A stretch of DNA of 28,405 bases from a virus (taxonomy: Duplodnaviria > Caudoviricetes). Under the pieces are notes generated by a model. The model saw only the letters and a program-made list of their open reading frames with translations. It was not told the origin of the DNA and made no database searches. Location: IMG/VR virus record IMGVR_UViG_3300025751_000105, positions 1-28,405 of that record. One strand, given 5' to 3'. The position numbers were made by a program, and so were the translations under genes. Below, in pieces: positions 2,336 through 19,049 of this stretch (its first letter is position 1; every line of letters begins with the position of its first letter).

Positions 2336-2383
2336 TTGGCGCCGCCCGAAAGTTCAATCGTTGTTCCTTCTGATATTTGATTC

Positions 2384-3106
2384 ATGGAAGCAAAAATTAG
2401 AGAGGGATTGAAGCGACTTTTGCGCCTGGGAAAAGAGGTGGAAAGAGCTGAGGACGAAAGCCACTACATTCACCTCCCTACAGGTACCAAATTGCAACGC
2501 TGTACCCAGTGGATTTCTGGCGGGGTTCCGCTGGTGATTCCGGACGTGTGGAAAGGCTGCCTGCCGATAGGCAGCATGGTCGACCAATGTGTGCGAGATT
2601 TCTTTGTTGAAGGGCTCGAGGAAATGTCTGCCTTCATGTACTGCAATCACATGCAGTTCAGGGCATATGAGCAGCTCGTTGCTGACCTCAAAAAATTCAA
2701 GGAGGAATACGGTGGCGATTGGCACGTTTTTGCTGACCGAGTTTTTCTGTTTTCGTTGTCATTAGGCGTGGGCGGTGAGGTTGACCTTTTGCTGGTCAAC
2801 AAGGAGACCGGTGCCATTTGGATTGTTGACATGAAAACAAGCCGCGGAGGGACGAAATCCTTCACCAAACGCTACAAGAAAAACGAGCCCACAAAACTCG
2901 AGAAGTATTCCTTGCAGCTCAACACCTACCGCTACATGGCGGAGGAGATGAGCGGACTCCAGGTGCATCGCTTGTCAATCCTACCAATCAAGGTCTTTTA
3001 CCCGCCCAACGGCAGCACCACCGATGAGGCATATTTCGAACCTCAAATTGATATTGAATTCTGCGACCCAATTGCAGCAAGGGACGCGCTAATTGAAGCA
3101 CAATGA
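2384..3106 (+). CDS. PD-(D/E)XK exonuclease-like protein
   Basis: GEVDLLL...IVDMKTS catalytic pattern and KYSLQLNTY (QxxxY) motif, typical of phage RecB/Cas4-like nucleases. Confidence 0.8.
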   Translation: MEAKIREGLKRLLRLGKEVERAEDESHYIHLPTGTKLQRCTQWISGGVPLVIPDVWKGCLPIGSMVDQCVRDFFVEGLEEMSAFMYCNHMQFRAYEQLVADLKKFKEEYGGDWHVFADRVFLFSLSLGVGGEVDLLLVNKETGAIWIVDMKTSRGGTKSFTKRYKKNEPTKLEKYSLQLNTYRYMAEEMSGLQVHRLSILPIKVFYPPNGSTTDEAYFEPQIDIEFCDPIAARDALIEAQ

Positions 3107-3534
3107 GTAAACCAGAACCGTACCACCGCAGAGTCCGAACGGGCTCAGGGTTTTTTACTCTCGAGCAATGCCGAGAGCTTTTCGCTTGGTCCTTGGAGCA
3201 GTTTGTTCCTGAGATTGAGCAACGAGAAATTGCAATGCAAACCAGCAGTATTTGCGGCCGCCAACTTGGCCTGAAAATGCACACCGCAAACGTGATGAAT
3301 TTGGTGCGTTTTTGGCTCATCAAAAACACGGACACGCCGACCGTGATTGTGGCAGAAGCGAGCGCGGTCCATCACTCAACTGTGACCAGGAATGTGCAGC
3401 GCTTCGAGGACTACCTTTTGCAGGACAATTCCTTTCAAAAAATCCTGAACGAGATTGATGAAATGGCTATGCGGTTTGACCGCAAGCATTTTGTGCCCAA
3501 AACTGAGCACCGCCCTGCAGCTGAAATCAAATGA
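3103..3534 (+). CDS. DnaA C-terminal-like HTH DNA-binding protein
   Basis: VAEASAVHHSTVTRNVQRFED resembles the DnaA domain IV DHSTV motif. ATGA overlap with the upstream gene. Confidence 0.5.
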   Translation: MSKPEPYHRRVRTGSGFFTLEQCRELFAWSLEQFVPEIEQREIAMQTSSICGRQLGLKMHTANVMNLVRFWLIKNTDTPTVIVAEASAVHHSTVTRNVQRFEDYLLQDNSFQKILNEIDEMAMRFDRKHFVPKTEHRPAAEIK

Positions 3535-3551
3535 GCAACTGATATTTGACC

Positions 3552-3863
3552 ATGGCAATTCCAAAGATTTTACGCGTCCAAATCAACGTGGATGCGATTG
3601 ACAAAAAGCACCTGTACAAAGGCAAGAAAGGGACGTATCTGAATGTGGCCCTTGTGAACACTCCTGACAGCCAATACGGCCAGGACTATATGGTAACCCA
3701 GGACCTCCCCAAAGAAGCACGCGACGCTGGCGAACGGGGTCCAATCCTGGGCAACGCTTCGGCGTTGTATTTGGAGGATGGAATCCCTGCCAAAAAAGAG
3801 GAAGGTGCCATGACTTCAGCGGCTCCCGTTGCTGACGACAAATCTGACGATTTGCCGTTCTGA
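3552..3863 (+). CDS. Putative single-stranded DNA-binding protein
   Basis: KGKKGTYL...YG...ILGN core and an acidic C-terminal DDLPF tail, characteristic of SSBs. It lies in the replication block. Confidence 0.65.
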   Translation: MAIPKILRVQINVDAIDKKHLYKGKKGTYLNVALVNTPDSQYGQDYMVTQDLPKEARDAGERGPILGNASALYLEDGIPAKKEEGAMTSAAPVADDKSDDLPF

Positions 3864-3884
3864 GCCGTCTGTGTGTTTGAACCG

Positions 3885-3916
3885 GAAAGGGGTGACCAAC
3901 GGCGCCCCTTTCTTTT
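3885..3916 (+). terminator. Intrinsic terminator-like hairpin
   Basis: GAAAGGGGTG...CGCCCCTTTC stem followed by TTTT, just after the SSB-like gene. Confidence 0.55.
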
Positions 3917-3942
3917 CGCAAAATCCGTACAAATGAACATCA

Positions 3943-5037
3943 ATGAAAAATCCCCTGCATTCGCTTCTAATCAAGCCCGAGGAGCTGCGCGCAAAAGCGA
4001 ATGAAATCCGCCGGTCAGGAACACGTCGTGGAGAGTATTCCGGCTTCGAATCACTGGACAAAATTTTCACAGCGAAAAAAGGCTTCCCGCTCTTCATCGC
4101 GGGAGCGCCTCACAGTGGAAAATCGCAGGTCGTGAAACAGCTCGCAATCAACTGGGCAACGGAGCTCGGTTGGAAGGGCATTCTGTACATGGGTGAAGAG
4201 GGTTCCGCGGTGGACTTGTTGCTTGACCTGGTTGAAGTGAAAACCGGAAAATCCGCTCGGCTGAATGATGCTGACGCGGACGATTCAAAAACGCCAATTT
4301 CATCGGACGAATTCGAGTACACAATCCACTGGCTTGACGAGCATTTCACAATCATCGACCCGGAGAAAGCCGTGGACGTTGCGTCCTGGACGTACGACAC
4401 CTTCAACGAGCTCCTCAAGGAGGCCGGAGATTTCGACTTTTCCGTCTTGGACCCGTTCAATGATTTGGACCGCGATATGGAGCTCCGTGATGACCTCTGG
4501 TTGACCAAGGTTCTGAAGGACGTTCGGATTGCTGCACGGCGCTCAAATCGGGTCGACGTGATTGTGAACCACATCGCGAAGACGCAGCACGACGGGAAGA
4601 CCTCAAATGGCATGCCCGTGAGCAAGCCCGCGAGACCTAACGAATGGGCTGGCGGTCAGACCTGGTACAGGCGAGCTTTCACCATGCTTTTGGTGTATCG
4701 TCCACCCGAGCACGAGTTGATTGATTTTTGCCCGTTCGATGAGGCTGGCGAGGGCTATCAAGTCGGACCCGGTGAAATGTGGATTCAAAACCAGAAAGCG
4801 AAGCCAAAAGGCTCGGGCAAACTCGGGTGGGCGCGGCTGTACTACGACACCTCCAGAAACCAGGTTTTCGAGCTTGACGAAACCGGCCCAAATGGACGAT
4901 GGACGTTGGGTCCTGAACAGAAGGTCAACCGCTACTATTCGGGCCAATTGAAGGCGTACAGGGAGAGCCAGGGCGGTCAGGGTAACACCCAGGCCACCCA
5001 GGAAGACCAGGACAACCCAAACAAGCTACTGTTTTGA
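3943..5037 (+). CDS. DnaB/SF4-family replicative helicase (no primase domain)
   Basis: Walker A GAPHSGKS, catalytic MGEE, Walker B SVLDPFND, H3 IVNHIAK, and a late QKAK...G motif. Confidence 0.85.
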   Translation: MKNPLHSLLIKPEELRAKANEIRRSGTRRGEYSGFESLDKIFTAKKGFPLFIAGAPHSGKSQVVKQLAINWATELGWKGILYMGEEGSAVDLLLDLVEVKTGKSARLNDADADDSKTPISSDEFEYTIHWLDEHFTIIDPEKAVDVASWTYDTFNELLKEAGDFDFSVLDPFNDLDRDMELRDDLWLTKVLKDVRIAARRSNRVDVIVNHIAKTQHDGKTSNGMPVSKPARPNEWAGGQTWYRRAFTMLLVYRPPEHELIDFCPFDEAGEGYQVGPGEMWIQNQKAKPKGSGKLGWARLYYDTSRNQVFELDETGPNGRWTLGPEQKVNRYYSGQLKAYRESQGGQGNTQATQEDQDNPNKLLF

Positions 5038-5369
5038 GCAGCATCAAGGAACTGAATTACCTAGCTGCGAAAATTGAATTCCAAGGAATGATGGAGGCCC
5101 TCATGGCGCAGCTCGACGACAACTCCGAACGCATGTCGGAAAAGCAAGTTGAAAGCTGGCAGAAAATCGCACACCTCGGTTTGTTGTTTGTCGACCAGTG
5201 TGAAGACAACTTTCTGGAGATTTCGAAGCTCAACATTCAAGCCCGCAGGTACTGCAAGGAGCTTGCTGAGCAGCGTGCAAAAATCCAGGAGCTCAGAACG
5301 GAAATCGCACGGGTCAGAAGGATGAACGTGGAGCTGAATGAGGCTCTTGCAAAAGGCATCCGAGTATGA
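5034..5369 (+). CDS. Hypothetical coiled-coil protein
   Basis: Overlaps both neighbouring genes by 4 nt. The C-terminal half is heptad-rich. Confidence 0.65.
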   Translation: MSSIKELNYLAAKIEFQGMMEALMAQLDDNSERMSEKQVESWQKIAHLGLLFVDQCEDNFLEISKLNIQARRYCKELAEQRAKIQELRTEIARVRRMNVELNEALAKGIRV

Positions 5370-6001
5370 CACCGCCCACAATCAAAACCGGTTCAATTGG
5401 TGACCTTCACGGTATGGACAAAAAGCAGAAGATTTTTGAGCGAATGCGCGACACAGTTGAGAGCGTGCACGAGCACATTGAAATGGAGTTTTCTGGTGAG
5501 GCATTTGCCGTGTGGATTTTCGGAACCTCGAACAAGGTGACGACGATGGTAACGAAGCCGGAGAAGCTTGCTTTTGCACAGGACACCGTGACCGCCGCGG
5601 TGAGTTCAAATCCGGTCATCAAGGAGCTGTTCACCCAGGGTCTTGCTGGAGAGAAAAATACCTACTACGACAACGATGAACTCGTTTTCGAAAAGCAGCC
5701 GACCAGGCGTGAAATCCTGGCAGCTCTGAACCTTGAGGCGAAGCTCATGTTCAAGGTCATTGAGCAAGCCCTAAACACGAAGCGCGTGGCTCCTGATGCA
5801 CACGGCAATGTTCCGATGAATGTGCTGACGGACTACGTGCTTCCGAAATTTCAAAACCAGACTGGTTTCCTCTTGTCTGATTCCATCTCGTTGATGGCCG
5901 ACGTGCTCGACCTGTGCGGGGCGGAAACGTATGAGGGGGATGATGATTCAAACGCAGAAATCAATTTCACAAATTCAGTTTTCAAATGGCGAAAAAATTA
6001 A
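5366..6001 (+). CDS. Hypothetical protein
   Basis: 211-aa ORF coupled to its neighbours. No motif recognised. Confidence 0.7.
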   Translation: MTPPTIKTGSIGDLHGMDKKQKIFERMRDTVESVHEHIEMEFSGEAFAVWIFGTSNKVTTMVTKPEKLAFAQDTVTAAVSSNPVIKELFTQGLAGEKNTYYDNDELVFEKQPTRREILAALNLEAKLMFKVIEQALNTKRVAPDAHGNVPMNVLTDYVLPKFQNQTGFLLSDSISLMADVLDLCGAETYEGDDDSNAEINFTNSVFKWRKN

Positions 6002-6417
6002 GCCCTTCCGAAGCTGCGCGAATGCGCAAGCTGTACGAGGAAAACGGACTCACTCCTGATGACGTTTTCCAGCACCAACACTACACCATCATCACCCGTC
6101 AGGGAATCGAAAAGATTCAGGCGAAGCACAACATTCGGGTGAGGTTCGAGGTTGAGCACCACGACCCGTCGACGAACACGATTTGCCTTCGCGGGTACGC
6201 GTGGCGCGCGGACAAGCCTGACGACCGAATTCAAACCTTTGGTGAGGTCAATCCGAAAAACAACCGGAACGCCTATCCCTGGGCGATGGCCGAGAAGCGT
6301 ACCCTGAGCCGCCTGGTCCTGAAGGCGGCGGGTCTGTACGCTGAAGGGGTTTTCGGAGAAGACGAAGCTGAGGATTTCGCCAAATCGAATCCCAGGAAGC
6401 GCGCGGCCGCAGGTTAA
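5986..6417 (+). CDS. Putative single-strand annealing protein (Sak/Rad52/ERF-like)
   Basis: TFGE...AMAEKRTLSRLVLKAAGL...GEDEAEDF resembles the (A)E(T/K)RA..RA motif of phage annealing proteins. It shares a block with the exonuclease, SSB and helicase genes. Confidence 0.55.
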   Translation: MAKKLSPSEAARMRKLYEENGLTPDDVFQHQHYTIITRQGIEKIQAKHNIRVRFEVEHHDPSTNTICLRGYAWRADKPDDRIQTFGEVNPKNNRNAYPWAMAEKRTLSRLVLKAAGLYAEGVFGEDEAEDFAKSNPRKRAAAG

Positions 6418-6450
6418 GTTTCATTCATTTCAGTTGGTTTTGGGCCGCGT

Positions 6451-6486
6451 AGACGACCGGGGGAACGCCCTCGGTCGTTTTTTTTT
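6451..6486 (+). terminator. Intrinsic terminator
   Basis: GACGACCGGGGG/CCCTCGGTCGTT stem followed by a long T run, at the end of the replication block. Confidence 0.85.
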
Positions 6487-6529
6487 CAATTTTTTTTTCC
6501 AGTCGTACCAAGGCTTTCGGGACGAAATG

Positions 6530-6613
6530 AGAATTTTTTTTCGCCTCCCCGTTTTTTGAATGAACATATCGCCCTATCTTAGCACTGTTCAATCACTCAA
6601 ACACACAGAACAA
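6530..6613 (+). promoter_or_regulatory. Cassette promoter repeat P1 (TATCTTAG variant)
   Basis: TTGAATGAACATAT..CCCTATCTTAGCACTGTTCAA is nearly identical to the copy starting at 17644. An AAACACACA leader precedes the ATG. Confidence 0.75.
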
Positions 6614-6931
6614 ATGAAATTTCCAGCTGCAATCTCCGAAAGCAAGAAGACGCGCCTCGAACTCGAACAAGCACACTACGATGTGCACGGTACAATCGAG
6701 GGAATGACTGACTACGAATTCCGCGCAATCCCACTCAAAGCCGACTCTGAAGACGAGCGTTTCGAAAACACTCTCACGGCTGCAACCCTCTTCGACCTGG
6801 CTGACCGCATCGGATGCAGCGAGCAAGGTCTCCGCGAAAAGCTTCGCGCCGCATACAAGTCCAACTACCCTTGCGACCTCCTCACCACTCGCTACAAGGG
6901 TTTCGTGATTAGCTGCAACGTCGAAGCTTAA
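6614..6931 (+). CDS. Hypothetical protein, possible HTH (NUMOD1-like)
   Basis: The ATG follows the promoter/leader repeat. LFDLADRIGCSEQGLREKL is HTH-like, with a terminal YKGFVI strand. Confidence 0.7.
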   Translation: MKFPAAISESKKTRLELEQAHYDVHGTIEGMTDYEFRAIPLKADSEDERFENTLTAATLFDLADRIGCSEQGLREKLRAAYKSNYPCDLLTTRYKGFVISCNVEA

Positions 6932-7002
6932 AAAAACTTCACCGGGACCGCCGGTCAAGGCGATTCCTGGTGTATATTTGAACATCAAACACACACAATG
7001 TC
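6930..7002 (+). promoter_or_regulatory. Cassette promoter repeat P2
   Basis: An A-tract is followed by GTATATTTGAACATCAAAC (6972-6990), which contains the Bacteroidota -7 box TAnnTTTG. The same 19-mer occurs at 18410, 18669 and 19094. Confidence 0.8.
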
Positions 7003-7317
7003 ATGAAGCCATTTTTCTTCTTCATCACGCGTCACAACACCATCGTCGACGCAGCTCGATACGGAAACCTCTCCGCCCTGGGTTCAGCCCTCGGAACGAG
7101 CCACACCACCGCCGGAACGTACACCGAAAAACTCCGTTCCAAGTGGTTCGGAATTGAACGCGCCACGAAAGGCCAGAATGTCCTGAGCAGCTTCCGAGTT
7201 GTTCCGCTCGGAAAGCACAACGTTGGTCTCATCGTCATGGTCAACGACAACGCCGACCGTGACGACGCACGAGCCCTCTTGTCAAGCAACGGTTTCAAAT
7301 TGAACAGCTGGTCATGA
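7003..7317 (+). CDS. Hypothetical protein
   Basis: Follows promoter P2. YGNLSALGSALGTSHTT is weakly HTH-like. Confidence 0.7.
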   Translation: MKPFFFFITRHNTIVDAARYGNLSALGSALGTSHTTAGTYTEKLRSKWFGIERATKGQNVLSSFRVVPLGKHNVGLIVMVNDNADRDDARALLSSNGFKLNSWS

Positions 7318-7502
7318 AGTTCGCGAAGTACAGAAAGAACCTCGAGAAAAAAGGGAACGGCATTTACAGCTACGGAACCCGCGTCGCAATCATTGAGGGA
7401 ACTACACTCAAGCAGCTTGGGTGGTGGTCGACGACAACGCAAAAGCATATCAACTATGCAGCACAGGAGTGCGGCCTAAAGCTCGACAGAAATGGTCATT
7501 GA
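7314..7502 (+). CDS. Small hypothetical protein (SYxTxVA...SxTTxxHIN phage family)
   Basis: YSYGTRVA...WSTTTQKHIN pattern, which I recall from small early phage proteins. ATGA overlap with the upstream gene. Confidence 0.7.
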   Translation: MKFAKYRKNLEKKGNGIYSYGTRVAIIEGTTLKQLGWWSTTTQKHINYAAQECGLKLDRNGH

Positions 7503-7683
7503 AATCCACACACCGTGGCACGGAAAATTGTGCCACCTCAGTTCATGGAAAGCGTTCCGCGGTTTCATGATTAAATGGGAGATGGACCGAGGTGAATTCA
7601 TCCAGGCTTCTTGGGTCTACTGCAACGGTCGTCCAATGAGGTCGTGGGAGGCCATACGGATTGAAATGAAGCGCCATGGTTGA
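7492..7683 (+). CDS. Small hypothetical protein
   Basis: Member of an overlapping chain of + strand ORFs. Confidence 0.55.
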   Translation: MVIEIHTPWHGKLCHLSSWKAFRGFMIKWEMDRGEFIQASWVYCNGRPMRSWEAIRIEMKRHG

Positions 7684-7966
7684 GCTCAGACGGATTGCCC
7701 TAACCCTCAAGCTGATTCAGCACACGGAGGCGACCACGATGGTCAGATGGATTCCCGAAGCGTACGGGTACTTCATGGCCGGAATGTTGACTGAAGCGGA
7801 GAGCAAGCTTCACCAGTTCGCGGGGTGCGGTACAATTCACCCGGTGAACCGGTCGAGGGCCTTCAGTGCGGCAAGCAAAATTGCCGCGCTTCAATGTCTA
7901 GACCGAGACGAATTTGAAAACCTAATTGAACAGTTCAGAAATGAAGAGAACGAAAATCAACCTTGA
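7676..7966 (+). CDS. Hypothetical protein
   Basis: Member of an overlapping chain of + strand ORFs. Confidence 0.55.
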   Translation: MVELRRIALTLKLIQHTEATTMVRWIPEAYGYFMAGMLTEAESKLHQFAGCGTIHPVNRSRAFSAASKIAALQCLDRDEFENLIEQFRNEENENQP

Positions 7967-8252
7967 CGGTTTCCGAGATGCGAAACCCCATGCCACCAAG
8001 GCGGAAAAATTTGGCCGAGAGCACGACCCAAAAAGTGGCGTCTCTGGCGAGTGGTTCATCGGAGCTCGCGTCGTGTGCGTGAGGCGAGATGACGAAGAGA
8101 AAACCCTGGTCCAAATCGGAACAACCAAATCCAGCGCGAAATGGATTGCGATGCAGACCGACCGACCGTGTTCGAGCCAGAAACTCCGCAGGGCTCTTAA
8201 GAACGGCCACCGTTGCAACGGATTTGTTGTGGAGTACAAAACCAAGCCCTAA
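7941..8252 (+). CDS. Hypothetical protein, possible NUMOD1-like DNA-binding module
   Basis: ATG at 7941. C-terminal TTKSSAKWI...SSQKLRRALKNGHRCNGFVVEY. TAATG coupling to the next gene. Confidence 0.6.
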   Translation: MKRTKINLDGFRDAKPHATKAEKFGREHDPKSGVSGEWFIGARVVCVRRDDEEKTLVQIGTTKSSAKWIAMQTDRPCSSQKLRRALKNGHRCNGFVVEYKTKP

Positions 8253-9094
8253 TGGATTTCGTCTCAAATATGGAGCCCAAAACGCTCCCAATCGTCCGAG
8301 AAGCTTTTGACGGCTTCGCCCGTTTCATCCGCATGCGCGAATCAATCCGAGTCCTGAAGGACAAGGGTGCCCCGCAGCCCTGGACCTACGACGAGATTCT
8401 GAAGGGGTATCACTTCACGAACATCCGGAGGGAAGACGACCGTGTTTCTCGGTTCCTGTTCGACGAGTGGTACCCACACGTGGTGAACCCGCGGAACGCG
8501 CGTCATGCGTGGGTCAAAATCATGGTCGCAAGGTTCGTCAATAACCCCACCTCCCTGAGAGAGATTGCCGACCTGATGAAGGACGAAAAATACCACGAGG
8601 CTTGGCTCGAACTTGAGGAGCGTGGCGAGGCCGGGAAAAAGGTTTTCCGGTCGGCCTACTTGCAGCCCGAAATCAAGGGTGTCCCTCGTCTGAAAAAAAT
8701 CTTCGGAATATTCCTCCCGCAGCTTCTTGAAACCGATATCCGAACGGAGTCGATACAGGACTGCATGGAGGACCTGTGCCGAATCAAATACTTCGGTGAA
8801 TTCATTGCCGGTCAGATGGCCCTTGACGCGCTCCACGTCGTCCCCGGTGAGTGGGCAGATGATTTCACTTTCGCCCCCATTGGGCCAGGCAGCACGAGGG
8901 GTCTGAATCGCCTCCGCGGTTTGCCCCTGACCAGGAAGCTGAAACGTGACCAGTACGAGCGTGAAATTGCTGAGCTGCACACATGCCCCGGCATGAACGA
9001 ATGGAGGGCGTATGATTTGGAGCACGCCCTGTGCGAGTGGGACAAGTACGAACGAATTCGATTGAAGCAAGGTTCGTACAACCGGAAACGTTGA
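8252..9094 (+). CDS. aGPT-Pplase1 / 5-hmdU DNA kinase helical-domain family protein (DNA base hypermodification)
   Basis: PWTYDEILKGYHFTNIRREDDRVS, an HhH-like LCRIKYFGEFIAGQMALD, GPGSTRGL and DLEHALCEWDKYER all match my recollection of this family's motifs. Confidence 0.8.
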   Translation: MDFVSNMEPKTLPIVREAFDGFARFIRMRESIRVLKDKGAPQPWTYDEILKGYHFTNIRREDDRVSRFLFDEWYPHVVNPRNARHAWVKIMVARFVNNPTSLREIADLMKDEKYHEAWLELEERGEAGKKVFRSAYLQPEIKGVPRLKKIFGIFLPQLLETDIRTESIQDCMEDLCRIKYFGEFIAGQMALDALHVVPGEWADDFTFAPIGPGSTRGLNRLRGLPLTRKLKRDQYEREIAELHTCPGMNEWRAYDLEHALCEWDKYERIRLKQGSYNRKR

Positions 9095-9138
9095 CACCGC
9101 CCCATGATTTTTGAATGAACATCTCTGAACATTGAGAC

Positions 9139-9648
9139 ATGGAAACACCACAGAAAATGGTTGCCCAGGTTCTAGCAAAGGGCAACATCAACCAGACATC
9201 TCTCGCCAAGCTTCTTGGCGTGACCCAGGGAGCCGTGAACCACTGGCTCACCGGAGCAAACAATCCCTCCCGGACCAATATGGAGGCCCTTAAACGGCTC
9301 CTGAGGATTTTTGAGGTGAAGGACAAGGCAATTCAATCCGGAGTCTTTAATGGCGCCTCTAAACGCCCCGCAGGCGATTCCATTGCCATCCAGGCTCATC
9401 GAATCGTGAATGAGCGCGCCGAGGAGAAGGAACGCCAGTACGGGGATTTCCACACGACCATGCGACGTGCGAACGACATCCTCAATGCCATCATGAATAC
9501 CAAGCTGCCCGAGCAGACCATGTACTTCGCGATGGTGGCTATGAAATTGGCTCGCGAGGGACACGCCCACAAGTCCGACAATTTGCTTGACGCCATGGCC
9601 TATATGCAGGCCCTCGAAAATCTTGAAAATGTGGTTGTCAGCGAATAA
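9139..9648 (+). CDS. Cro/C1 (XRE) HTH fused to a DUF6378-like all-alpha domain
   Basis: N-terminal NQTSLAKLLGVTQGAVNHWLTG is a canonical XRE HTH. The C-terminal part has AHRIVNER..QYGD...MVAMKLARE...DNLLDAMAY. Confidence 0.75.
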   Translation: METPQKMVAQVLAKGNINQTSLAKLLGVTQGAVNHWLTGANNPSRTNMEALKRLLRIFEVKDKAIQSGVFNGASKRPAGDSIAIQAHRIVNERAEEKERQYGDFHTTMRRANDILNAIMNTKLPEQTMYFAMVAMKLAREGHAHKSDNLLDAMAYMQALENLENVVVSE

Positions 9649-10348
9649 CCCACCGGAGGCCTTCCGCCAGGCTTATCGCCTGGTCACCGACAACGGTGAA
9701 CCGAACGAGGACACCCTGCGATTCACGGGCGTCGTCATTGAGGTCAGAAACCCGCTCGATTTCGAGGCGGGTCTCTGGCCCATTTGGCGCAAGTGGTCAC
9801 AGCGGTATGTGGACCTCGAATGGAAGTGGTACGAGGCTGCAACACGTGACCCTGAGATGGTCGAGAAGGTCGCTTCAATCTGGACCAAAATGAAGGACCA
9901 GTTTGGCGAGGTGAATAGCAACTACGGGTGGCAGATGAAACGGGAAAACCAGTGGGCCACATGTGTCCGCGAAATCGTTGAATCCATGCTGACCGGAAAG
10001 GGCACGAGAAAACACGTCCTTTCAATCTACGACGGCAAAGAGCGGTGGCGCTACACGAAGGACACACCGTGCACGATTTCCTTCACCTTCGTTTTGAAGC
10101 GTGAGGGCAAGACGAAATTCAGGCTTGACCTGCACACGCACATGAGGTCAAACGACGTTTGGTACGGCCTCTGCAACGACCTCCCGGCCTTTGCCCTGTT
10201 TCAGTCCAAAATGGTGACCGACGTTCAGACCAAACTGCATGACATATGCAAGGGCGCTCCAACACCATACCGTGTCCGCATGGGCCGCCTGGTTCACTTT
10301 GTGGACGACCTCCATTTGTACAACGATTTCCTAGACAGAGACGAATGA
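9629..10348 (+). CDS. Thymidylate synthase homologue, T4 gp42-like dCMP hydroxymethylase type
   Basis: LEWKWY, IW...GEVNSNYGW, catalytic PCT, MRSNDVWYGLCND with Asp at the specificity position, and LHLY. Confidence 0.8.
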   Translation: MWLSANNPPEAFRQAYRLVTDNGEPNEDTLRFTGVVIEVRNPLDFEAGLWPIWRKWSQRYVDLEWKWYEAATRDPEMVEKVASIWTKMKDQFGEVNSNYGWQMKRENQWATCVREIVESMLTGKGTRKHVLSIYDGKERWRYTKDTPCTISFTFVLKREGKTKFRLDLHTHMRSNDVWYGLCNDLPAFALFQSKMVTDVQTKLHDICKGAPTPYRVRMGRLVHFVDDLHLYNDFLDRDE

Positions 10349-10743
10349 AAAATTTTGAGACTCTCCTGAAGATTCAGGACACAATTCAACGAGACCATCA
10401 GGGTATGGATTCACAATCCATGACGATGGCAGAACGAGCTGACGAAATGATGCGCCAGCAGCAGTACCTACTTGACGAAATCACGGAGCTCATGACCGCA
10501 CTCGGTGGACCGTTCGGAAAGGCTTCCTGGAAAAAGTGGAAGGCTGACCACGAAACAGTCAAAGACCTGTACGTTGAGGACCTCGATTCTGACGAGTGGA
10601 AAGAGGTGGTTTTTGAGTCTGCCGACGTGCTCATTTTCGTGCTCAACATTTTGGCCCTTGCTGGCGTTACTGGCGAGGAAGTTTTGCAAGCTGTGGAGGA
10701 CAAGCAAAACGAGAACATTGAACGCTGGAAAAGTGGATATTGA
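10345..10743 (+). CDS. All-alpha dCTP/dUTP pyrophosphatase (T4 gp56-like, MazG superfamily)
   Basis: DEITELMTALG, WKKWKA, EVVFESADVLIFVLN and KQNENIERWKSGY parallel T4 gp56 motifs as I recall them. Confidence 0.8.
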   Translation: MKNFETLLKIQDTIQRDHQGMDSQSMTMAERADEMMRQQQYLLDEITELMTALGGPFGKASWKKWKADHETVKDLYVEDLDSDEWKEVVFESADVLIFVLNILALAGVTGEEVLQAVEDKQNENIERWKSGY

Positions 10744-11417
10744 TGGTCGCCAAAAAACGAGCAGCTCTGTGCAGCCCTCCGCATCATTTTGTCGTTCTCT
10801 ACAAGGGCAAAAAGGTGTGGGGGCCGCACACCCCTTACGCATGCATGAACTGGTACCACACAAAAGACCCAAGGCCCATGCATGACCAGAGCGATTTCAG
10901 CATTGTTCAGAGGCCTCTTTTGAAGGCCTCAGTGCATTTGCCTATCAAGGATGAAACCGTGCTGACCACGGCCGCCAGAATGAGCCACGTGAACCCACTG
11001 TACGGCGAGATGGAGTACATGAACAAGTGCTTCAGGAATCCAGAGAACGACGAGCAAAAAAGCATGGCGTCCAGATTTGCCGGGGTCATGGCCGAATTAC
11101 AGGTTTGCGAGTCCATGCACGGGGTCTTCACGGACAGCTACAAATCCGCCAGTCCGGACAAGGGTTGGGACATGGAAATTCACGACCTGAAAGTTGACGT
11201 GAAAACGTCGTTCTGGTACAAGGACTCGTGGACCATCAAGAAGGAAAAATACGAGAGTGACATTTTGCTTTTCACCAATGTCCAGCTGGCTCCATTTCGC
11301 CAGGTTACGCTGCGCGGTTTTCTTGAGCCTCGAGAGCTGGTTTACTGTGACCGAATCAAGAACATGTGGCGTGTGACTTCATCAAAAATTCGACCGCTCA
11401 AAGACATGACAATTTGA
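10743..11417 (+). CDS. Putative PD-(D/E)XK (restriction-endonuclease-like) nuclease
   Basis: GVMAELQV...DKGWDME...VDVKTS fits the E...D...(D/E)xK pattern. TGATG coupling to the pyrophosphatase gene. Confidence 0.55.
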   Translation: MVAKKRAALCSPPHHFVVLYKGKKVWGPHTPYACMNWYHTKDPRPMHDQSDFSIVQRPLLKASVHLPIKDETVLTTAARMSHVNPLYGEMEYMNKCFRNPENDEQKSMASRFAGVMAELQVCESMHGVFTDSYKSASPDKGWDMEIHDLKVDVKTSFWYKDSWTIKKEKYESDILLFTNVQLAPFRQVTLRGFLEPRELVYCDRIKNMWRVTSSKIRPLKDMTI

Positions 11418-11457
11418 GTCCAACGAACGAGGCAACCTAGGAAAGCTCGCGGGCGCG

Positions 11458-11466
11458 TAGTTTTGC
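11458..11466 (+). promoter_or_regulatory. Possible -7 box upstream of portal
   Basis: TAGTTTTGC matches TAnnTTTG in the short intergenic gap, but it is very close to the ATG. Confidence 0.35.
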
Positions 11467-11473
11467 AAAGAAC

Positions 11474-12691
11474 ATGAGTATCTTCACCCGCATTTTTGGA
11501 GGCAACAAAGAGGAGCGTTCATCGAGCGTCAACCCCGCTTTGTACTTCAACGCGGGAGGTGCGAATACCCGCGCCGGTTCCAACATCACTCCGAACGAAT
11601 CTCTCAAGCTTGGCACAGTCTACGCTTGCGTTTCCAAAATCGCTCAAACCGTAGCGGCTTTGGACCGTTCTGTTTTCAAGGAAAACAAGCAAGGTCGTTC
11701 GGTCGTTGAGCACCCCGTTTCGTACCTCCTTTCCAACTACGCGGACAGGCACACCTCGTCCTTTGATTTCTGGGAAAAAATCGTTTCAGATTCCTTGCTG
11801 TATGGCAAGGGATATGCGTACATCGAAAGGAGCGGAACGAGGCCCACGGCTTTGGTCTGGTTGCCTGCCCAAAACGTCGAAGAAATGGACGCCCCGCAGG
11901 GAGCGACCGTGTACCAGTTTTCGCCGGAAAAAACAGGCCGCGTTGATGCAACGAATTTCAACTTCCTAGAGCAAGAGGTTCTTGTCGTTTCGGCGTTCCG
12001 TGGGATTAGCCCGATTGAGTACCACCGGGAGTCTCTTGGACTGTCAAAGGCGGCCCTTGAATTTGGGGCCAGTTTCTTTGGTTCTGGAGGCAATTTGAGT
12101 GGTGTCTTGTCTGTCGACAAGACTCTCACAGATGAGCAGTTCATGGCGCTCCAAAACGCTTGGCAGAACAAGTACCACGGCAAGAGCGGTCAGCACGCGA
12201 CCGCAATCCTTGAACACGGCATCAAATACGAAAGAATCGGAATCCCACCGGACGATGCTCAGTTCATTGAAACAAGGAAGATGCAAGCCTCAGAAATCGC
12301 ACGGATTTTCAACGTCCCTGCATCACTGGTCGGGCTTGAGGCGAACGTTTCATTCAGCAACGTTGAGCAGCAAAATATCTTCTTCGCATCGTACACCATT
12401 GCGCCACTCGTGAAGCGCATTGAAAACGAGCTGAACAACAAACTTTTCACAGAGCGAGAACGCAAGAGCATGAGTGTTGAATTTGACATGAGCTCTCTCC
12501 TCCGTGCGGACGCGGAGACGCGTTCAAATTACTATTCCACCATGCTCCGCGATGGCGTCATGACCATCAACGAGGTTCGCAAGATTGAGGGACTCAATCC
12601 GACCGAAAATGGTGACACCCATTTCGTTCCACTCAACGTCATTCCGCTCGGTAAAATGGACGGCTATGGCGACAAAATTTCGACTCCGTAA
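11474..12691 (+). CDS. Portal protein, HK97 family
   Basis: VYACVSKIAQTVA, LLYGKGYAYI, GISPI, DAQFIETRK, EIARIFNVP, SNVEQQ and GVMTINEVR. Confidence 0.96.
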   Translation: MSIFTRIFGGNKEERSSSVNPALYFNAGGANTRAGSNITPNESLKLGTVYACVSKIAQTVAALDRSVFKENKQGRSVVEHPVSYLLSNYADRHTSSFDFWEKIVSDSLLYGKGYAYIERSGTRPTALVWLPAQNVEEMDAPQGATVYQFSPEKTGRVDATNFNFLEQEVLVVSAFRGISPIEYHRESLGLSKAALEFGASFFGSGGNLSGVLSVDKTLTDEQFMALQNAWQNKYHGKSGQHATAILEHGIKYERIGIPPDDAQFIETRKMQASEIARIFNVPASLVGLEANVSFSNVEQQNIFFASYTIAPLVKRIENELNNKLFTERERKSMSVEFDMSSLLRADAETRSNYYSTMLRDGVMTINEVRKIEGLNPTENGDTHFVPLNVIPLGKMDGYGDKISTP

Positions 12692-12693
12692 CC

Positions 12694-13098
12694 ATGGCCG
12701 ATTACTACTATATCTTGAAGGTTATTGACTGCCGCGGGAAAAGCGACCCAGGCAAGAACCCAGCGAGGAGAGCACGCACTAAAAACACAAAGAACTCAAG
12801 TGGCAATTGGGTGCTTCGTTTTTCAGACCTCAACAGCACTGCGGCTTCGTCAAAAGTTCGATTCCTGGGCGAGGTTCAGGACCAGCTGTCACGAGCTCCC
12901 GGAATGGTCAAATATCTTGACCTGAACGCCCTTCTTGCAGCATTGACGAATTCGGCTACAACGACAAACGATGGGGTCACCACCGTGGGGCCATGGAGCC
13001 AACGTATTGGCAAGCGGTTTTTGCGCTACGAAATTGGCGTTTCGACTAGCAGCTATGGAAACGCAGAGGTGAACTGTACTGCCCACGACCTGGAATGA
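12694..13098 (+). CDS. Hypothetical protein between portal and protease
   Basis: 134-aa ORF tightly coupled on both sides. Confidence 0.65.
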   Translation: MADYYYILKVIDCRGKSDPGKNPARRARTKNTKNSSGNWVLRFSDLNSTAASSKVRFLGEVQDQLSRAPGMVKYLDLNALLAALTNSATTTNDGVTTVGPWSQRIGKRFLRYEIGVSTSSYGNAEVNCTAHDLE

Positions 13099-14414
13099 GT
13101 TTTTCGGACTATCCACAGAGCGCAACAAACGCGGCAAAACGCGCGTTGAAATTCAAGGAGGAAAACGGTACTTCTTGCGGCACCCCTGTGGGGTGGCAGC
13201 GAGCAAACCAGTTGGCCTCCCGAGAAGCTCTGTCGTTGTCCACCGTGAAGCGAACTTTCAGCTTCCTTTCACGAGCCGAAGTGTACGACCAGGGACGATT
13301 CACCGATGATGACGGCAAGGAAATTTGCGGGTCAATCATGTACGCCGCATGGGGTGGAAAAGCCATGCGCGGTTGGTGCAACAAAATCATCCGAGAAGAG
13401 GAGGAGCGGAACGAGCTCAACGAGCAGGCAAAAACCTCTCTCAAAAAGAAGGTCGAGGAACACAACGAAGAGTTTGGAGACAATCCCAAAAAGCGGGCCA
13501 CTCTGGCCATGCTTTCGGCGGTTTACAAAAGGGGCATCGGAGCGTACAAGGGAAACCCCTCTTCTGTGCGTCCTTCGGTCAAGTCCCCGGAGCAGTGGGC
13601 ATTTGCCCGAGTGAATTCATTTTTGTACGCCCTCAGGAACGAGCGTTTCCGTGGTGGAAAACACGACACAGACCTCTTCCCCAAGGGCCACAAACTTTCA
13701 AGCAGAAGCATGGACGAAAACAAAGAAATCCGAGTGACTACCGGGCTAGAGGTCCGGTACATGAATCAAGAGGACGAAGAGAAGCGCACGCTGTCTGGTT
13801 ACGCAATCAAATTCAACGACGTCACGACGATTGGCGACCAGTTCCGCGAGCAAGTCACTTCGACCGCTCTGGAAGGCGTTGACATGAGCAACACGTTTGC
13901 CTTGTTCAACCACGACTGGTCAAGCCCTCTCGGGCGTGCTGGTCGCAACATGAATCTGACCGTGGACGACACTGGTTTGCGAGTTGACATTGACCTGCCC
14001 AATACGAGCATGGCGCGTGACCTCGCAGAGCTTGTCAAAAACGACATCGTGGGTGGCATGAGCTTCGGCTTCACCATCGCCGATGATTCATGGACACGAG
14101 ACGACGAAATGCCCCTCAGGACCATCAACAAAATTGACCGTCTGTACGAGGTGACGTTTACGCCCATTCCAGCCTATCCGACCACGGAAGTGGCCTTGCG
14201 CAATCTTGAGCAAGCCACAGCCGAAGACGATACCAACGACATTCTCCAGGAGCTGCATGGAGACCACACAGAGGCTCAAACCTCTCCCCCTAGCCCAGAA
14301 CAAGGGCCAGGCACCCCGGAGCCAAATATGGCGCCCCAAAACGCTCCAGAGGATAAACCCCTCGCCTTCACCAAGGTTGACGCCCTCAAATTCTTGTTGG
14401 ACAACCAGGAATGA
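13095..14414 (+). CDS. HK97-family prohead protease with ~205-aa N-terminal extension
   Basis: LSGYAIKFN, ALFNHD, GMSFGF and LYEVTFTPIPAY. The protease domain begins near the in-frame ATG at 13710. Confidence 0.9.
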   Translation: MSFSDYPQSATNAAKRALKFKEENGTSCGTPVGWQRANQLASREALSLSTVKRTFSFLSRAEVYDQGRFTDDDGKEICGSIMYAAWGGKAMRGWCNKIIREEEERNELNEQAKTSLKKKVEEHNEEFGDNPKKRATLAMLSAVYKRGIGAYKGNPSSVRPSVKSPEQWAFARVNSFLYALRNERFRGGKHDTDLFPKGHKLSSRSMDENKEIRVTTGLEVRYMNQEDEEKRTLSGYAIKFNDVTTIGDQFREQVTSTALEGVDMSNTFALFNHDWSSPLGRAGRNMNLTVDDTGLRVDIDLPNTSMARDLAELVKNDIVGGMSFGFTIADDSWTRDDEMPLRTINKIDRLYEVTFTPIPAYPTTEVALRNLEQATAEDDTNDILQELHGDHTEAQTSPPSPEQGPGTPEPNMAPQNAPEDKPLAFTKVDALKFLLDNQE

Positions 14415-14452
14415 AATGCGAGATTTTCGAACCTTTCAAAATCCCCTGAATC

Positions 14453-15655
14453 ATGAATTCAATTGAATTGATGGACAAGCGGAATGCAGCGCTCGAAGAG
14501 CTTCGCGGTTTGGTTAACCTGAACGGCGAAGAGTTTACCCCCGAGCAAAGCATCGAAGCACAGGAATTGCGCGACCAAATTTCTTCCCTGGACGCGAAGA
14601 TTTCTGACCAAAAAATCAAAGAGGAAGAAACCCGTTCCAACCCCACCCCTCAACCCCGAAACGAGATGAAAGACATTCAAGCTCGCTACTCTCTGGGAAA
14701 GGCGGTCAAGGAGCTCGCTACTGGTGGGCAGTTGACTGGCCTGGAAGCAGAGATGCACCAAGAGGCCCGAAACGAGGCCGCAGCCCTTGGCATCAACAAC
14801 ACAGGAAACCTTTCTGTGCCCTCGATGCTTTTCCGTGAAAACACCGTGAACTCTGGCACGAACCAGACGGTTACCGCGACCTCTGGTCAGATGGTTCCTG
14901 AAATTGTGAACCAGCTCCGTCCGGACTCCGTTGTGGACAAGCTCGGTGCAACCGTTTTCCAGGCTTCTGGTTCTGTTGTGATTCCCGTTCAGACAGACCA
15001 CATCGACGCAGGAAACACGACTGAAGCTGCTGACGTGACCGCTTCGGATTTCGACATCGTGAACAAGACCCTCGTGCCTGAGCGTGTGTCTGCCATGAAC
15101 GAGTACAGCATGCAGCTCCTCGCTCAAAACGTGAACGCCATTGATGCGTTTGTGGTTCGCGACATCAACCGCGAAATGGGCATCGGAATTGATGACAAAA
15201 TCATCACGAAGCTCCAGTCCGGTTTGACCGCAGATGCAACGAGCGCAGCTGAATTCGACATGGCTGATTTGCCCGCCCTCTGCGAAGAGGATTTGTTGGC
15301 CGCAAACGCGAGCGTGGAAGGTGCGAAATTCTTGCTCCACCCATCCGTTTTGCGTCGTTTGAAGCGTCTTTCTTTGGACGCTGGTTCTGGCCGCATGGCA
15401 GCTGAAGGAAACACCATCTACGGTTACCAGGCAATCGCCACGACCACCGAGATGACCGCGACTGAAATCCTCTTCGGAGATTTCACCGATTTGGCAGTGG
15501 CATACTGGGGCGGAATCGACGTCCTCGTTGACCCATACACGCGCGGCCACGCTGGTCTCGTTCGCGTCATCGCGAATGCCCACTGTGACGCAGCCGTTCG
15601 CCGCGCCGGTTCCTTCTCTTTCCGCACTGTATTGAACAACGCTTCGAACTACTAA
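14453..15655 (+). CDS. Major capsid protein, HK97 fold
   Basis: Position after the protease, a coiled-coil N-terminal delta-like domain, and ILFGDF...WGGIDVLVDPYT. Confidence 0.93.
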   Translation: MNSIELMDKRNAALEELRGLVNLNGEEFTPEQSIEAQELRDQISSLDAKISDQKIKEEETRSNPTPQPRNEMKDIQARYSLGKAVKELATGGQLTGLEAEMHQEARNEAAALGINNTGNLSVPSMLFRENTVNSGTNQTVTATSGQMVPEIVNQLRPDSVVDKLGATVFQASGSVVIPVQTDHIDAGNTTEAADVTASDFDIVNKTLVPERVSAMNEYSMQLLAQNVNAIDAFVVRDINREMGIGIDDKIITKLQSGLTADATSAAEFDMADLPALCEEDLLAANASVEGAKFLLHPSVLRRLKRLSLDAGSGRMAAEGNTIYGYQAIATTTEMTATEILFGDFTDLAVAYWGGIDVLVDPYTRGHAGLVRVIANAHCDAAVRRAGSFSFRTVLNNASNY

Positions 15656-15678
15656 TTCGAAGGCGATTTGAAAACCTG

Positions 15679-15716
15679 AAAGGCCCTGACCCGAAAGGGT
15701 TGGGGCCTTTTGTTTT
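15679..15716 (+). terminator. Intrinsic terminator after capsid gene
   Basis: AAAGGCCCTGACCC-GAAA-GGGTTGGGGCCTTT followed by TGTTTT. Confidence 0.85.
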
Positions 15717-15728
15717 AACCTCAAAACC

Positions 15729-16340
15729 ATGAGACAAACCATCAAAGAAACCGTGACTCCGGTTGACATCGTTTCGGTCCTCACAACCGGAGTGATTGAG
15801 AGTCATCTACGCGTGACATACAGTGCCGATTCATCGTACCTTGATGGTCTCGCAAAAGCCGCCCTGGCGGCGGTCGAAAAAGAGGTGAACGAAACCTTCG
15901 GACAGGTTGCGGTTTCGGGAGACAATTCCGAGTATGTGAACGAGTTCACGGTCCCCTATGAGGCGAGCCGAATTCGAGGCGTTGTGGTGGTCAATTACTA
16001 CGACGAAACGGATGCAAACATTCCCATCGATACGGTGAACGTTGTTCAATCCACTCAGGGGTACCCCGCGGTCATTCAAATCAACCCAGATTTCAAGCCA
16101 ACGGGAATCACGAAAAAGCGACCATACCACCAGACATTCAGCTTCACGATTGACCCTAAACCATTGCCCGAAGGGTTGAAGCAGGCGGTGCTCATGATGA
16201 TGGCCCACTTCTACGAAAACAGGGAGGCTGTTTTGACCGGCCGAGTTGTCGAGCCGCCACTCGCTTTCAGGTTCCTCTGCGCGCAGTACAAGCGACCAGC
16301 TTTGCGCCAGCCGTACAACCCTGAATTCATCGTGCGATGA
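15729..16340 (+). CDS. Head-tail connector (gp6-like)
   Basis: HLRV..D..YL and LKQAVLMMMAHFYENRE. Confidence 0.9.
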   Translation: MRQTIKETVTPVDIVSVLTTGVIESHLRVTYSADSSYLDGLAKAALAAVEKEVNETFGQVAVSGDNSEYVNEFTVPYEASRIRGVVVVNYYDETDANIPIDTVNVVQSTQGYPAVIQINPDFKPTGITKKRPYHQTFSFTIDPKPLPEGLKQAVLMMMAHFYENREAVLTGRVVEPPLAFRFLCAQYKRPALRQPYNPEFIVR

Positions 16341-16678
16341 TTGGCGCAGGAAAGCTCGACCGATTCGTGACCATTCGGGACGTCCTTGGGACTCAGGATG
16401 CGTTCGGCCAACCAGTCGAATCTTACCGCGACCTCGCGACCGTTCCGTGCCAAAAAGAGGACATCCTTTCGACCTCTTCAATGGAGGTCGAGGAAGCTGC
16501 CCAGGAGCAGACCAAAACCATCTCGAAATTCACCATCCGATACTACCCCGGATTGGAGGGCAAAATGCGCCTTCTGTTCGAGGGTGAGACGTACGAAATC
16601 GTGCGAGTTGCAGAGCGTGGCCGGAAGCGTTACACAATCATCTTGGCGTACGCCTTGAGCTCAGACGTTTTGAACTGA
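16337..16678 (+). CDS. Head closure/head-tail adaptor (SPP1 gp16-like)
   Basis: GKLDRFVTI, QDAFG, FTIRY and MRLLFEGETYEI. Confidence 0.9.
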   Translation: MIGAGKLDRFVTIRDVLGTQDAFGQPVESYRDLATVPCQKEDILSTSSMEVEEAAQEQTKTISKFTIRYYPGLEGKMRLLFEGETYEIVRVAERGRKRYTIILAYALSSDVLN

Positions 16679-17157
16679 TGGCGAAGGCGGTTGAAATGAA
16701 ACTGACGGGCCTTCTGAAGGCGAAGGAACTGGTCAACATGCGTGGTGGTTATCGGGCCAAGCGTCGCGAGCTCAATCGTGAGATGCGAAGAGCAATGAGA
16801 CCGGCCTACAACCGGATGCGTGCAAGGGCTCCAAAAGGTCCGACCGGAGCGCTCAAGAAATCCATTGCAACGACCGCCTTCATGACCTTCGATTCCATCA
16901 ACGTTCGGACAGGCCCTCGCGTGCGTGGCCCGCGACGCGCGAGCTACGCGCATATCGTGGAACTCGGCTCGAAGGGCGGTGTTCGAGTGGTCAAAAAACC
17001 AGGTTCAAAGGGCTTCAGAATCGGACGCCGCAGGACCGACAAAATCAATCACCCAGGGACCAAGGGTGTGGGGTTCATCGAGTCGACCTACAACGACTCC
17101 ATCAACACTGTTGTGCCGCGAGCCATTGCGGCCATCAAAAAAGTATTTCGTGTCTAA
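16678..17157 (+). CDS. HK97 gp10-like tail component
   Basis: ARAP..TGALKKSI, YAHIVELG, HPGTK..GFI, and gene position. Confidence 0.85.
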   Translation: MAKAVEMKLTGLLKAKELVNMRGGYRAKRRELNREMRRAMRPAYNRMRARAPKGPTGALKKSIATTAFMTFDSINVRTGPRVRGPRRASYAHIVELGSKGGVRVVKKPGSKGFRIGRRRTDKINHPGTKGVGFIESTYNDSINTVVPRAIAAIKKVFRV

Positions 17158-17561
17158 TGCTCGACCTAGTCTATAAGCTCCTCAAAGACGACTCGAATGT
17201 GACCGGAGAGGTCTCGAGCCGCATCTACCCGTACATCCGTGAAAAGGACACCACAATGCCCGCCGTCATGATGGAATTTGTGGGAACGGAATTCACCATT
17301 CCGAAGGAAGGAATCTCCAAGGCGGACATGTACCAGGTTGAAGTGTTTTCGTACGCCAAAACCGCGACCGTTGCAATGCGCCTCGGGCACAAGGTTCGGG
17401 CGGCCCTGGTCAACAAGCCAGGGACGTACGACATGACCGGAGACGGAGGCTTTTCGTACGAGGTCCTCGAGTCACACATCCGACAGATGAGCATGGAGAG
17501 CGAAGCCGAGGGCCGTGTTTACGTCCTGGTTCAGGTTTTCGACTTCGTGGTGTCAGTCTGA
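17157..17561 (+). CDS. Tail terminator/completion protein (DUF3168-like)
   Basis: SRIYP...P and QVEVFS...VRAAL, plus gene position. Confidence 0.8.
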   Translation: MLDLVYKLLKDDSNVTGEVSSRIYPYIREKDTTMPAVMMEFVGTEFTIPKEGISKADMYQVEVFSYAKTATVAMRLGHKVRAALVNKPGTYDMTGDGGFSYEVLESHIRQMSMESEAEGRVYVLVQVFDFVVSV

Positions 17562-17581
17562 GGAAGTTTTTTTTCGTCCTG

Positions 17582-17607
17582 AAAGCCCAGTAAACGCTGG
17601 GCTTTTT
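17582..17607 (+). terminator. Hairpin/terminator before cassette island 2
   Basis: AAAGCCCAGT-AAAC-GCTGGGCTTT followed by TT. Confidence 0.6.
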
Positions 17608-17616
17608 CAGTTTCCC

Positions 17617-17700
17617 GAAAATTTTTTTCCCGTGTTTCGTCGATTGAATGAACATATGCCCCTATCTTAGCACTGTTCAAACAAACAAACACACAGCATC
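17617..17700 (+). promoter_or_regulatory. Cassette promoter repeat P3 (TATCTTAG variant)
   Basis: TTCGTCGA at 17636 lies 27 nt before TATCTTAG at 17663. It shares its core with P1 and its leader with P4. Confidence 0.8.
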
Positions 17701-19048: not shown

Positions 19049-19049
19049 G

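Follow-up and report, generated by a model that had tools for sequence, protein, structure and literature searches.

Two described routes to modified phage DNA resemble the locus reported here. The 5-hydroxymethylcytosine (5hmC) pathway of phage T4 comprises the deoxycytidine monophosphate (dCMP) hydroxymethylase gp42, gp56, gp1, the alpha- and beta-glucosyltransferases, and DenB. The thymidine-hypermodifying phages of the M6 and ViI type carry a deoxyuridine monophosphate (dUMP) hydroxymethylase with Asn at position 177, the 5-hydroxymethyluridine (hmU, 5hmU) DNA kinase 5-HMUDK, a clade-2 amino acid:DNA transferase (AADT), and a clade-1 aGPT-PPlase. A cassette of five genes that combines parts of both sets was analyzed in the IMG/VR virus record IMGVR_UViG_3300025751_000105 (Duplodnaviria; Caudoviricetes), and the window, that is the whole stretch of DNA that was studied, is this entire 28,405-base record (CheckV completeness 99%). 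The cassette (table 1) is real and conserved; it couples a first half of the T4 type to an orphan enzyme of the thymidine pathway and is the most reduced version of this arrangement. Its unusual points are the cytosine-type partner synthase and the lack of a kinase gene. A broad reading, with a probability of roughly 0.5, is that clade 1 has switched from uracil to cytosine in this lineage and would convert 5hmC, without a kinase, to 5-methylcytosine (5mC) or to a new C5 adduct, using the kinases and the polymerase of the host; the preferred reading, held tentatively, is that the product is 5mC.

All five open reading frames (ORFs) of the cassette were confirmed on the plus strand, with overlaps at three of the four junctions and a 44-nt gap at positions 9094-9139. 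The relatives L005 and L007 share the whole gene order, with 55-80% identity, three others (L004, L006, and L009) share its downstream part, and the five consecutive, mostly coupled genes listed in the preliminary description are thereby upheld. The cassette shares with the T4 pathway the diagnostic residues of the gp42 type and a gp56 homologue, whereas the window phage is a 28-kb siphovirus of the HK97 type with no recognized glucosyltransferase, deoxynucleoside monophosphate (dNMP) kinase or DNA polymerase and with a weak likeness to DenB. With the thymidine-hypermodifying phages M6, ViI, PaMx11, PhiW-14, and SP10 it shares a clade-1 gene beside a hydroxymethylase, the fold family and the cysteine; in contrast to the M6/ViI-type set, the synthase is of the dCMP type and kinase, AADT, pyridoxal phosphate (PLP), and radical SAM genes were not found in the window. 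The clade-1 protein had been singled out as stand-alone, and it is indeed encoded by a separate gene, but this is normal for the family since M6 gp55 is also a gene of its own.

The synthase starts at an ATG at position 9629, is 239 amino acids long and has the T4 dCMP hydroxymethylase as its best match in the PDB (E = 5e-10; 22% identity to gp42, pairwise E = 3e-13). Rules given for this enzyme family are that Asp at ThyA position 177 directs the enzyme to dCMP, an acid at 143 gives a non-methyl product and Asn at 169 gives a hydroxylase (PMC13326640). D184 of the window synthase aligns with D179 of the T4 enzyme, in a column that holds Asn in the PDB mutants 6l18 and 6a9a, its equivalence to ThyA N177 being mapped via the T4 enzyme. 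D145-x-x-C148 places an acid at the ThyA L143 position, three residues before the catalytic cysteine, and the retained D176 means that the D169N substitution of the RB69 gp48-type 5-hydroxy-dCMP (5hodCMP) synthase is absent. The synthase is assigned to the gp42 type because it follows the rules for 177 and 143 and not the hydroxylase rule for 169; its diagnostic residues are neither those of ThyA nor those of the RB69 hydroxylase. Synthases with Asp177 are enriched in contigs with modified cytosine, where PRA-PH and deaminase genes are their companions (PMC8670742). The closest cultured relative, gp32 of Bacteroides phage BF486P2 (35.6%), adjoins a carbamoyltransferase, and the relative in Enterococcus phage nattely adjoins a beta-glucosyltransferase. 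The pyrophosphatase is 28% identical to T4 gp56 over 137 columns spanning the catalytic helices (pairwise E = 3e-16), and its predicted substrate, from homology, is dCTP. Judged by its residues, the synthase very likely makes 5-hydroxymethyl-dCMP (5hmdCMP), and 5hmdCMP synthesis by the cassette is well supported because the synthase residues, the neighbors of its cultured relatives and the gp56 homologue all point to it. The gp42-like and gp56-like assignments of the preliminary description were confirmed, and its caveat that RB69-like arabinosylating phages might hold similar pairings lost its ground: the arabinosyl-hydroxycytosine route of RB69 and DLP3 also has a D177-type synthase and a dCTPase, but its D169N synthase, flavin cofactor, sugar-making genes, and glycosyltransferase-fold enzymes, as described in PMC13326640, were not seen in the window, where D169 is kept. 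The 5-carbamoyloxymethylcytosine pathway (PMC8670742; gene set in BF486P2) resembles the cassette in its synthase and its PRA-PH companion, but the window has the clade-1 gene where the carbamoyltransferase stands, and BF486P2 has no match to PF18723. The carbamoyltransferase cluster of BF486P2 (L117, positions 2653-8681) holds two thymidylate synthase homologues, the second of which is divergent.

The clade-1 protein aligns with PF18723 end to end (model positions 2-278 of 281; E = 2e-31, 109.9 bits, curated cut-off 25) and is 28% identical to M6 gp55; all 120 aligned sequences have C261. Its predicted model (pLDDT 95) has its best fold match in an AADT, PaMx11 gp46 (8z2m; Z = 9.3, root mean square deviation 4.3, 213 aligned), followed by HhH glycosylases, which fill most of ranks 2-21 at Z = 8.2 and below. 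E257, H258, and C261 align to E243, T244, and C247 of M6 gp51, and in PaMx11 gp46 the same residue numbers are metal ligands and the base-clamping cysteine, with the metal contacting thymine O4 (PMC11472151). Both the cysteine and the metal are essential in clade 2 (PMC13458397). The likeness is at the level of the fold only: PDB searches with the protein and its profile returned nothing, Foldseek with the model gave no match at E = 0.001, and PF18724 (clade-2 AADT) had no match in the genome at E = 10. The Pfam name of PF18723 includes the word kinase, yet the M6 kinase is the separate gp54, and the two are fused in SP10 gp186 (PMC5889632). In Table 3 of the same paper the clade labels of the M6 proteins are exchanged relative to PMC8989533 and Pfam, with gp51 under clade 1 and gp55 under clade 2.

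The window protein belongs to a subclade that forms a single branch in a quick tree (18 rows, SH-aLRT 100, stem 1.28) and has eight residues fixed in 18 of 18 rows (H54, T56, Q138, R146, W201, E257, H258, and Y276). Although the clade-1 family is common, the subclade is rare, with three clusters at 50% identity that lie far above the rest of the 4,412 representatives matching the clade-1 family at E up to 0.001, and no member was found in GTDB genomes with the patterns searched. At the positions of E257 and H258, uracil-type members carry Q in 50 of 53 and N in 51 of 53 cases. A change from amide to acid near base position 4 would parallel the N177D change of the synthase, which is only suggestive since M6 gp55 carries E-H too. 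Elsewhere in the family, clade 1 forms fusions with a DNA polymerase of family A (968 aa, P0382) and with a cpYpsA SLOG domain (P0253).

The gene-neighborhood survey called for in the preliminary description covered 105 loci with a clade-1 match, which reduce to 78 when identical proteins are counted once (62 distant loci and 16 of the subclade); the distant set is a sample, drawn from the top 80 of some 1,200 stretches. Among the 62 distant loci an N-type synthase is present in 49, another synthase in one, no synthase in 12 and a D177-type synthase in none, with a kinase in 39 and an AADT in 29. The norm of the distant family is a dUMP hydroxymethylase, in agreement with the thymidine background from which that description started. 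The 16 subclade loci comprise six with a D177-type synthase and ten without a synthase (in four of which the contig ends within 700 bases downstream); none has an N-type synthase, a kinase or an AADT. Clade 1 and a D177-type synthase occur together in two independent cases, the window family and L023, an unrelated phage (30% GC, different terminase class) with the gene row clade 1, DUF6378, MazG, dCMP deaminase, gp42-type synthase. In the larger phages of the subclade the clade-1 gene follows a PolB-type exonuclease where the contig is long enough. Hsp20- and DnaJ-like genes also lie near the clade-1 gene in these loci (L107-L114).

The survey also indicates what clade 1 travels with. For 37 of the distant loci the flanks extend 3 kb or more in both directions; the full set of synthase, kinase, and AADT occurs in 18 of them, and a synthase without the other two in ten. 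A scan for decorating genes, covering 70 of 121 neighbors from 16 loci, assigned a TAGT glycosyltransferase to five of these ten, a radical SAM enzyme to one and nothing recognized as decorating to four. PF18748, a model that is insensitive to distant kinases, picked up no kinase in any of five whole records, four of which have a completeness of 45-88%. In the cultured Brevibacterium phage LuckyBarnes (L208, positions 2768-6783) clade 1 stands with an N-type synthase and two annotated glycosyltransferases. Overall, clade 1 accompanies the hydroxymethylase and not any single decoration, often without a kinase. LuckyBarnes and five further loci (L062, L068, L081, L083, and L095) combine a dUMP-type hydroxymethylase, a glycosyltransferase, and clade 1 with no kinase and are candidates for glycosylated 5hmU, and three loci (L044, L048, and L089) with clade 1, a dUMP hydroxymethylase, and no decorating gene recognized nearby resemble a uracil twin of the minimal cassette. 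In Ralstonia phage phiRSL1 (L209, positions 1-8099) clade 1 and a dUMP hydroxymethylase adjoin an annotated sulfotransferase and APS kinase, neighbors that hint at sulfate activation of hmU.

Clade 1 is present in all four classic thymidine-hypermodifying phages (PMC5889632) and stands beside M6-like synthases in pelagiphages, in an account of these genes that does not mention cytosine (PMC9599517). M6 gp55 was dispensable for glycinylation in reconstitution, the clade-2 AADT reaction requires a phosphate leaving group and passes through a methylene that borohydride reduces to thymidine, and the virion DNA of M6, ViI, PhiW-14, and SP10 contains no hmU, the remainder being converted to T (PMC8989533). 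No enzyme was assigned to this hmU-to-T step in the literature searched. A generic finishing step for clade 1 is favored over a decorating one because clade 1 is dispensable for amino-acid transfer in M6 and constant across decorations.

The absence of kinase, transferase, and glucosyltransferase genes noted in the preliminary description was borne out in the 99%-complete record, with no match to PF18748 (5-HMUDK), PF18724 or PF20691, and a standard kinase/transferase set elsewhere in the genome that might account for the clade-1 gene was searched for and not found. Custom kinase and AADT profiles detected nothing in positions 1-19091 (via the identical locus L100), no glycosyltransferase appeared in the Pfam, PHROG, and NCBIfam scans (39, 39, and 24 ORFs), and a six-frame Walker A scan gave the helicase as its only convincing match and two others that look like chance; the scans for the 5-HMUDK kinase leave room for a very divergent kinase. 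A kinase hidden in the missing genome end was considered and rejected, as the 865 nt that precede terS in the relative L203 contain an HNH-like ORF (motif identified by eye) and another, short ORF, the junction to VRR-NUC not being covered.

In the preferred reading, the gp56 homologue would hydrolyze dCTP to dCMP, which the synthase would convert to 5hmdCMP. Host kinases and the host polymerase would then bring 5hmdCMP into DNA, a step suggested by the absence of phage genes for it. By analogy with AADT chemistry, the clade-1 enzyme would flip the base and add C261 to C6, with the expulsion of water leaving an exocyclic methylene, and a cellular reductant may quench the methylene to a methyl group, as in the hmU-to-T step. 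A C5-modified cytosine is likely to be present in the phage DNA, and it is somewhat likely that the clade-1 enzyme acts on it; 5mC as the end product, formed by reduction of 5hmC on DNA without a kinase, is proposed tentatively, by analogy. This product is favored over a bulky base because the literature searched assigns no activity to clade 1, and because its genes accompany the hydroxymethylase irrespective of which decorating enzymes are present.

Several points weigh against the preferred reading. The entry of 5hmdCMP into DNA is its weakest step: a dNMP kinase and a DNA polymerase were not recognized (Pfam/PHROG, 39 ORFs), and PMC13326640 describes no more than traces of product from RB69 gp48 when its kinase was missing. 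No reductant or partner reductase was identified, and the phosphate leaving group needed by AADT chemistry is lacking in the window system. The fold match of Z = 9.3 is modest for a helical protein, and the profile match of clade 1 to AADT spans 18 columns (P = 0.044). The E-H pair is not diagnostic of cytosine, being found in M6 gp55 and in 17 of 145 more distant representatives whose context is unknown. Five of the six subclade loci with a D177-type synthase represent one phage family, the window copy included, and six distinct loci from larger phages (L107, L108, L110, L111, L113, and L114) have no synthase in view. The reductase role of clade 1 is itself hypothetical because no activity of any clade-1 enzyme was reported in the literature searched, which did not cover the family-defining Iyer et al. 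2013. The main fact against a finishing enzyme is SP10, for which Table 3 of PMC5889632 lists a clade-1 domain, as a fusion with the kinase, and no clade 2; clade 1 may act as a transferase there.

The restriction-site content of the genome was also compared with expectation. GATC does not occur in the window (0 vs. 82 expected) and is nearly absent in four sets of relatives, but it is absent from 13 of 54 control loci as well and its absence may reflect the host lineage alone, which lessens its value for the preferred reading. MboI and DpnII cut the fully 5mC-substituted DNA of Xp12 (PMC7653180, supplementary Table S3), and the absence of GATC is therefore no argument against a small C5 group; the T4gt rows in PMC7653180 are confounded, as unmodified T4 GT7 DNA is also uncut. 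Avoidance does not extend to the other 6-bp palindromes that contain C (369 vs. 381 expected), whose ratio of observed to expected lies above the control medians of 0.79 and 0.68 in a plain comparison. Avoidance of AT-only restriction sites was set aside as a sign of cytosine modification: it is clear in L020, with 44 vs. 72.9 expected, and the window, with 18 vs. 24.1, shows a weak effect within the control range. The TpA ratio of the whole window is 0.32, a value that no locus of the two control sets reaches (54 loci, minimum 0.50; 58 loci, minimum 0.42).

Among the alternatives, a kinase-free hypermodification, in which 5hmC in DNA would lose water through the action of the clade-1 enzyme and take up an amine, amino acid or thiol from the host to give an undescribed base, is doubtful. 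The closest solved fold is a group transferase, the catalytic cysteine and the metal-site positions are retained, the subclade carries changes fixed in 18 of 18 rows, SP10 may use its clade-1 half as a transferase (PMC5889632), and no other decorating gene was found in the genome. However, the window contains no activating enzyme or donor-making gene, gp55 adds nothing to the M6 glycinylation reconstitution (PMC8989533), and uracil-type loci keep clade 1 where a glycosyltransferase or AADT already decorates. The proposal of the preliminary description that the enzyme decorates the base and yields an undescribed one is possible, but a generic finishing step fits the distribution of clade 1 better.

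It is unlikely that the genome contains plain 5hmC and that the clade-1 enzyme still acts on 5hmU arising by deamination of 5hmC or 5hmdCMP, converting it to T or excising it. The dCMP deaminase gene of L023, located between the pyrophosphatase and the synthase, the many HhH glycosylases in the fold search, the E-H pair shared with M6 gp55 and the subclade members with no synthase in view would all suit this reading. On the other hand, the Pfam scan of the window gave no deaminase, PMC8670742 describes deaminase and PRA-PH genes as ordinary companions of D177-type synthases in C-modified contigs, and the long stem branch and the fixed changes suggest an altered specificity. Distinctly less probable is a cassette that shifts nucleotide pools or gives low-level substitution, with 5hmdCMP entering DNA partly or never. 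The unrecognized dNMP kinase and polymerase, a DUF6378 that could not be linked to a known kinase and the complete avoidance of GATC are in its favor, but two unrelated phages have a conserved DNA-acting enzyme and a gp56 homologue on the flanks of the synthase, and the other C-containing palindromes occur at near the expected number. An ordinary thymidylate synthase or dUMP hydroxymethylase with a dUTPase, in a cassette that concerns thymine, is very improbable: T4 gp56 is annotated as a dUTPase too, the uracil pathway is the norm of the clade-1 family and the NCBIfam matches of the synthase are thymidylate synthase models only (far below cut-off), but the synthase has D184 and D145, its nearest relatives in culture have a carbamoyltransferase or beta-glucosyltransferase next to them, and dUMP hydroxymethylases differ in their greater length and in a G-A-N at the D184 site.

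The cassette isolates the clade-1 enzyme, with only a hydroxymethylase and a pyrophosphatase alongside. Conversion of 5hmC to 5mC at the DNA level, or ligation to 5hmC without a kinase, would count as new chemistry and could serve in 5hmC mapping. If the preferred reading is true, the phage would methylate its genome by a two-step route and would have a cytosine twin of the hmU-to-T enzyme. Phage Xp12 methylates cytosine at the nucleotide level. In contrast, the window synthase bears the hydroxymethylase mark, so that a further step, on DNA, would be required to arrive at 5mC, although the predicted end product would be the same as in the full 5mC substitution of the Xp12 type (PMC7653180).

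Table 1. Coordinates of the cassette genes and other features of the window.
Feature	Position	Strand	Basis and remarks
Clade-1 aGPT-PPlase (M6 gp55 family), HhH-type helical DNA-base enzyme	8252..9094	+	PF18723, 280 aa, E257-H258-x-x-C261
Cro-type helix-turn-helix (HTH) fused to DUF6378	9139..9648	+	Pfam HTH_3 E 4.5e-7, DUF6378 E 9.9e-8
Predicted dCMP hydroxymethylase, T4 gp42 type	9629..10348	+	PF00303 E 2.9e-13; D145, C148, D176, D184
T4 gp56-like all-alpha dCTPase/dUTPase	10345..10743	+	PRA-PH Pfam E 5e-5, phrog_173 E 6e-16
PD-(D/E)XK-type nuclease-like protein	10743..11417 (or from 10740)	+	phrog_1360 'DenB-like' E 0.003, weak; no Pfam match
Small conserved ORF	7926..8252	+	Stop overlaps clade-1 start; 66-73% in L007, L022
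Repeated intergenic promoter-like element	6972..6997	+	Upstream of gene run with cassette; four copies, 88-100% identical; contains TATATTTG
Repeated intergenic elements before small genes	6972-6997, 18365-18441, 18624-18700, 19049-19125		
Further repeated intergenic element	6556-6608 with 17644-17696		
Further repeated intergenic element	9108-9125		Just before HTH-DUF6378
Terminase	605-2335		
Portal	11474-12691		
Prohead protease	13095-14414		Weak DUF5824 match

Two of the cassette genes have less certain roles. The model of the DUF6378 protein (pLDDT 87) matches mainly other DUF6378 proteins, with no solved fold above Z = 6.3, and in L023 a DUF6378 without HTH comes directly after the clade-1 gene. 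DUF3310 has a nucleotide kinase role. DUF6378 as a kinase of this kind was rejected, as there is no profile likeness to DUF3310 (E = 0.33, the same as for seven control families). The likeness of the last ORF of the cassette to DenB is weak and not significant, as hhalign against T4 DenB gave 43 columns only (P = 0.17); its eight homologues are all 68-97% identical. The small conserved ORF that precedes the clade-1 gene has no match in Pfam, PHROG or NCBIfam and may belong to the cassette unit.

The repeated intergenic elements contain TATATTTG or TTGAATGAACAT and are probably phage promoters or operators, while TANNTTTG occurs six times, not above chance (6.9). The element upstream of the cassette gene run may resemble the Bacteroidota promoter consensus. 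A Bacteroidota host is weakly inferred from this promoter consensus and the closest cultured synthase, and the sequencing runs containing the phage carry the label freshwater metagenome, a possible source. The genes of the phage include an HK97-type head, a siphovirus tail, an amidase, a holin, a helicase, and an exonuclease (Pfam/PHROG, 39 ORFs). A 9-kb block of replication and modification genes lies between the terminase and portal genes, in the same order in L007, and the prohead protease has a long N-terminal extension that is shorter in L007.

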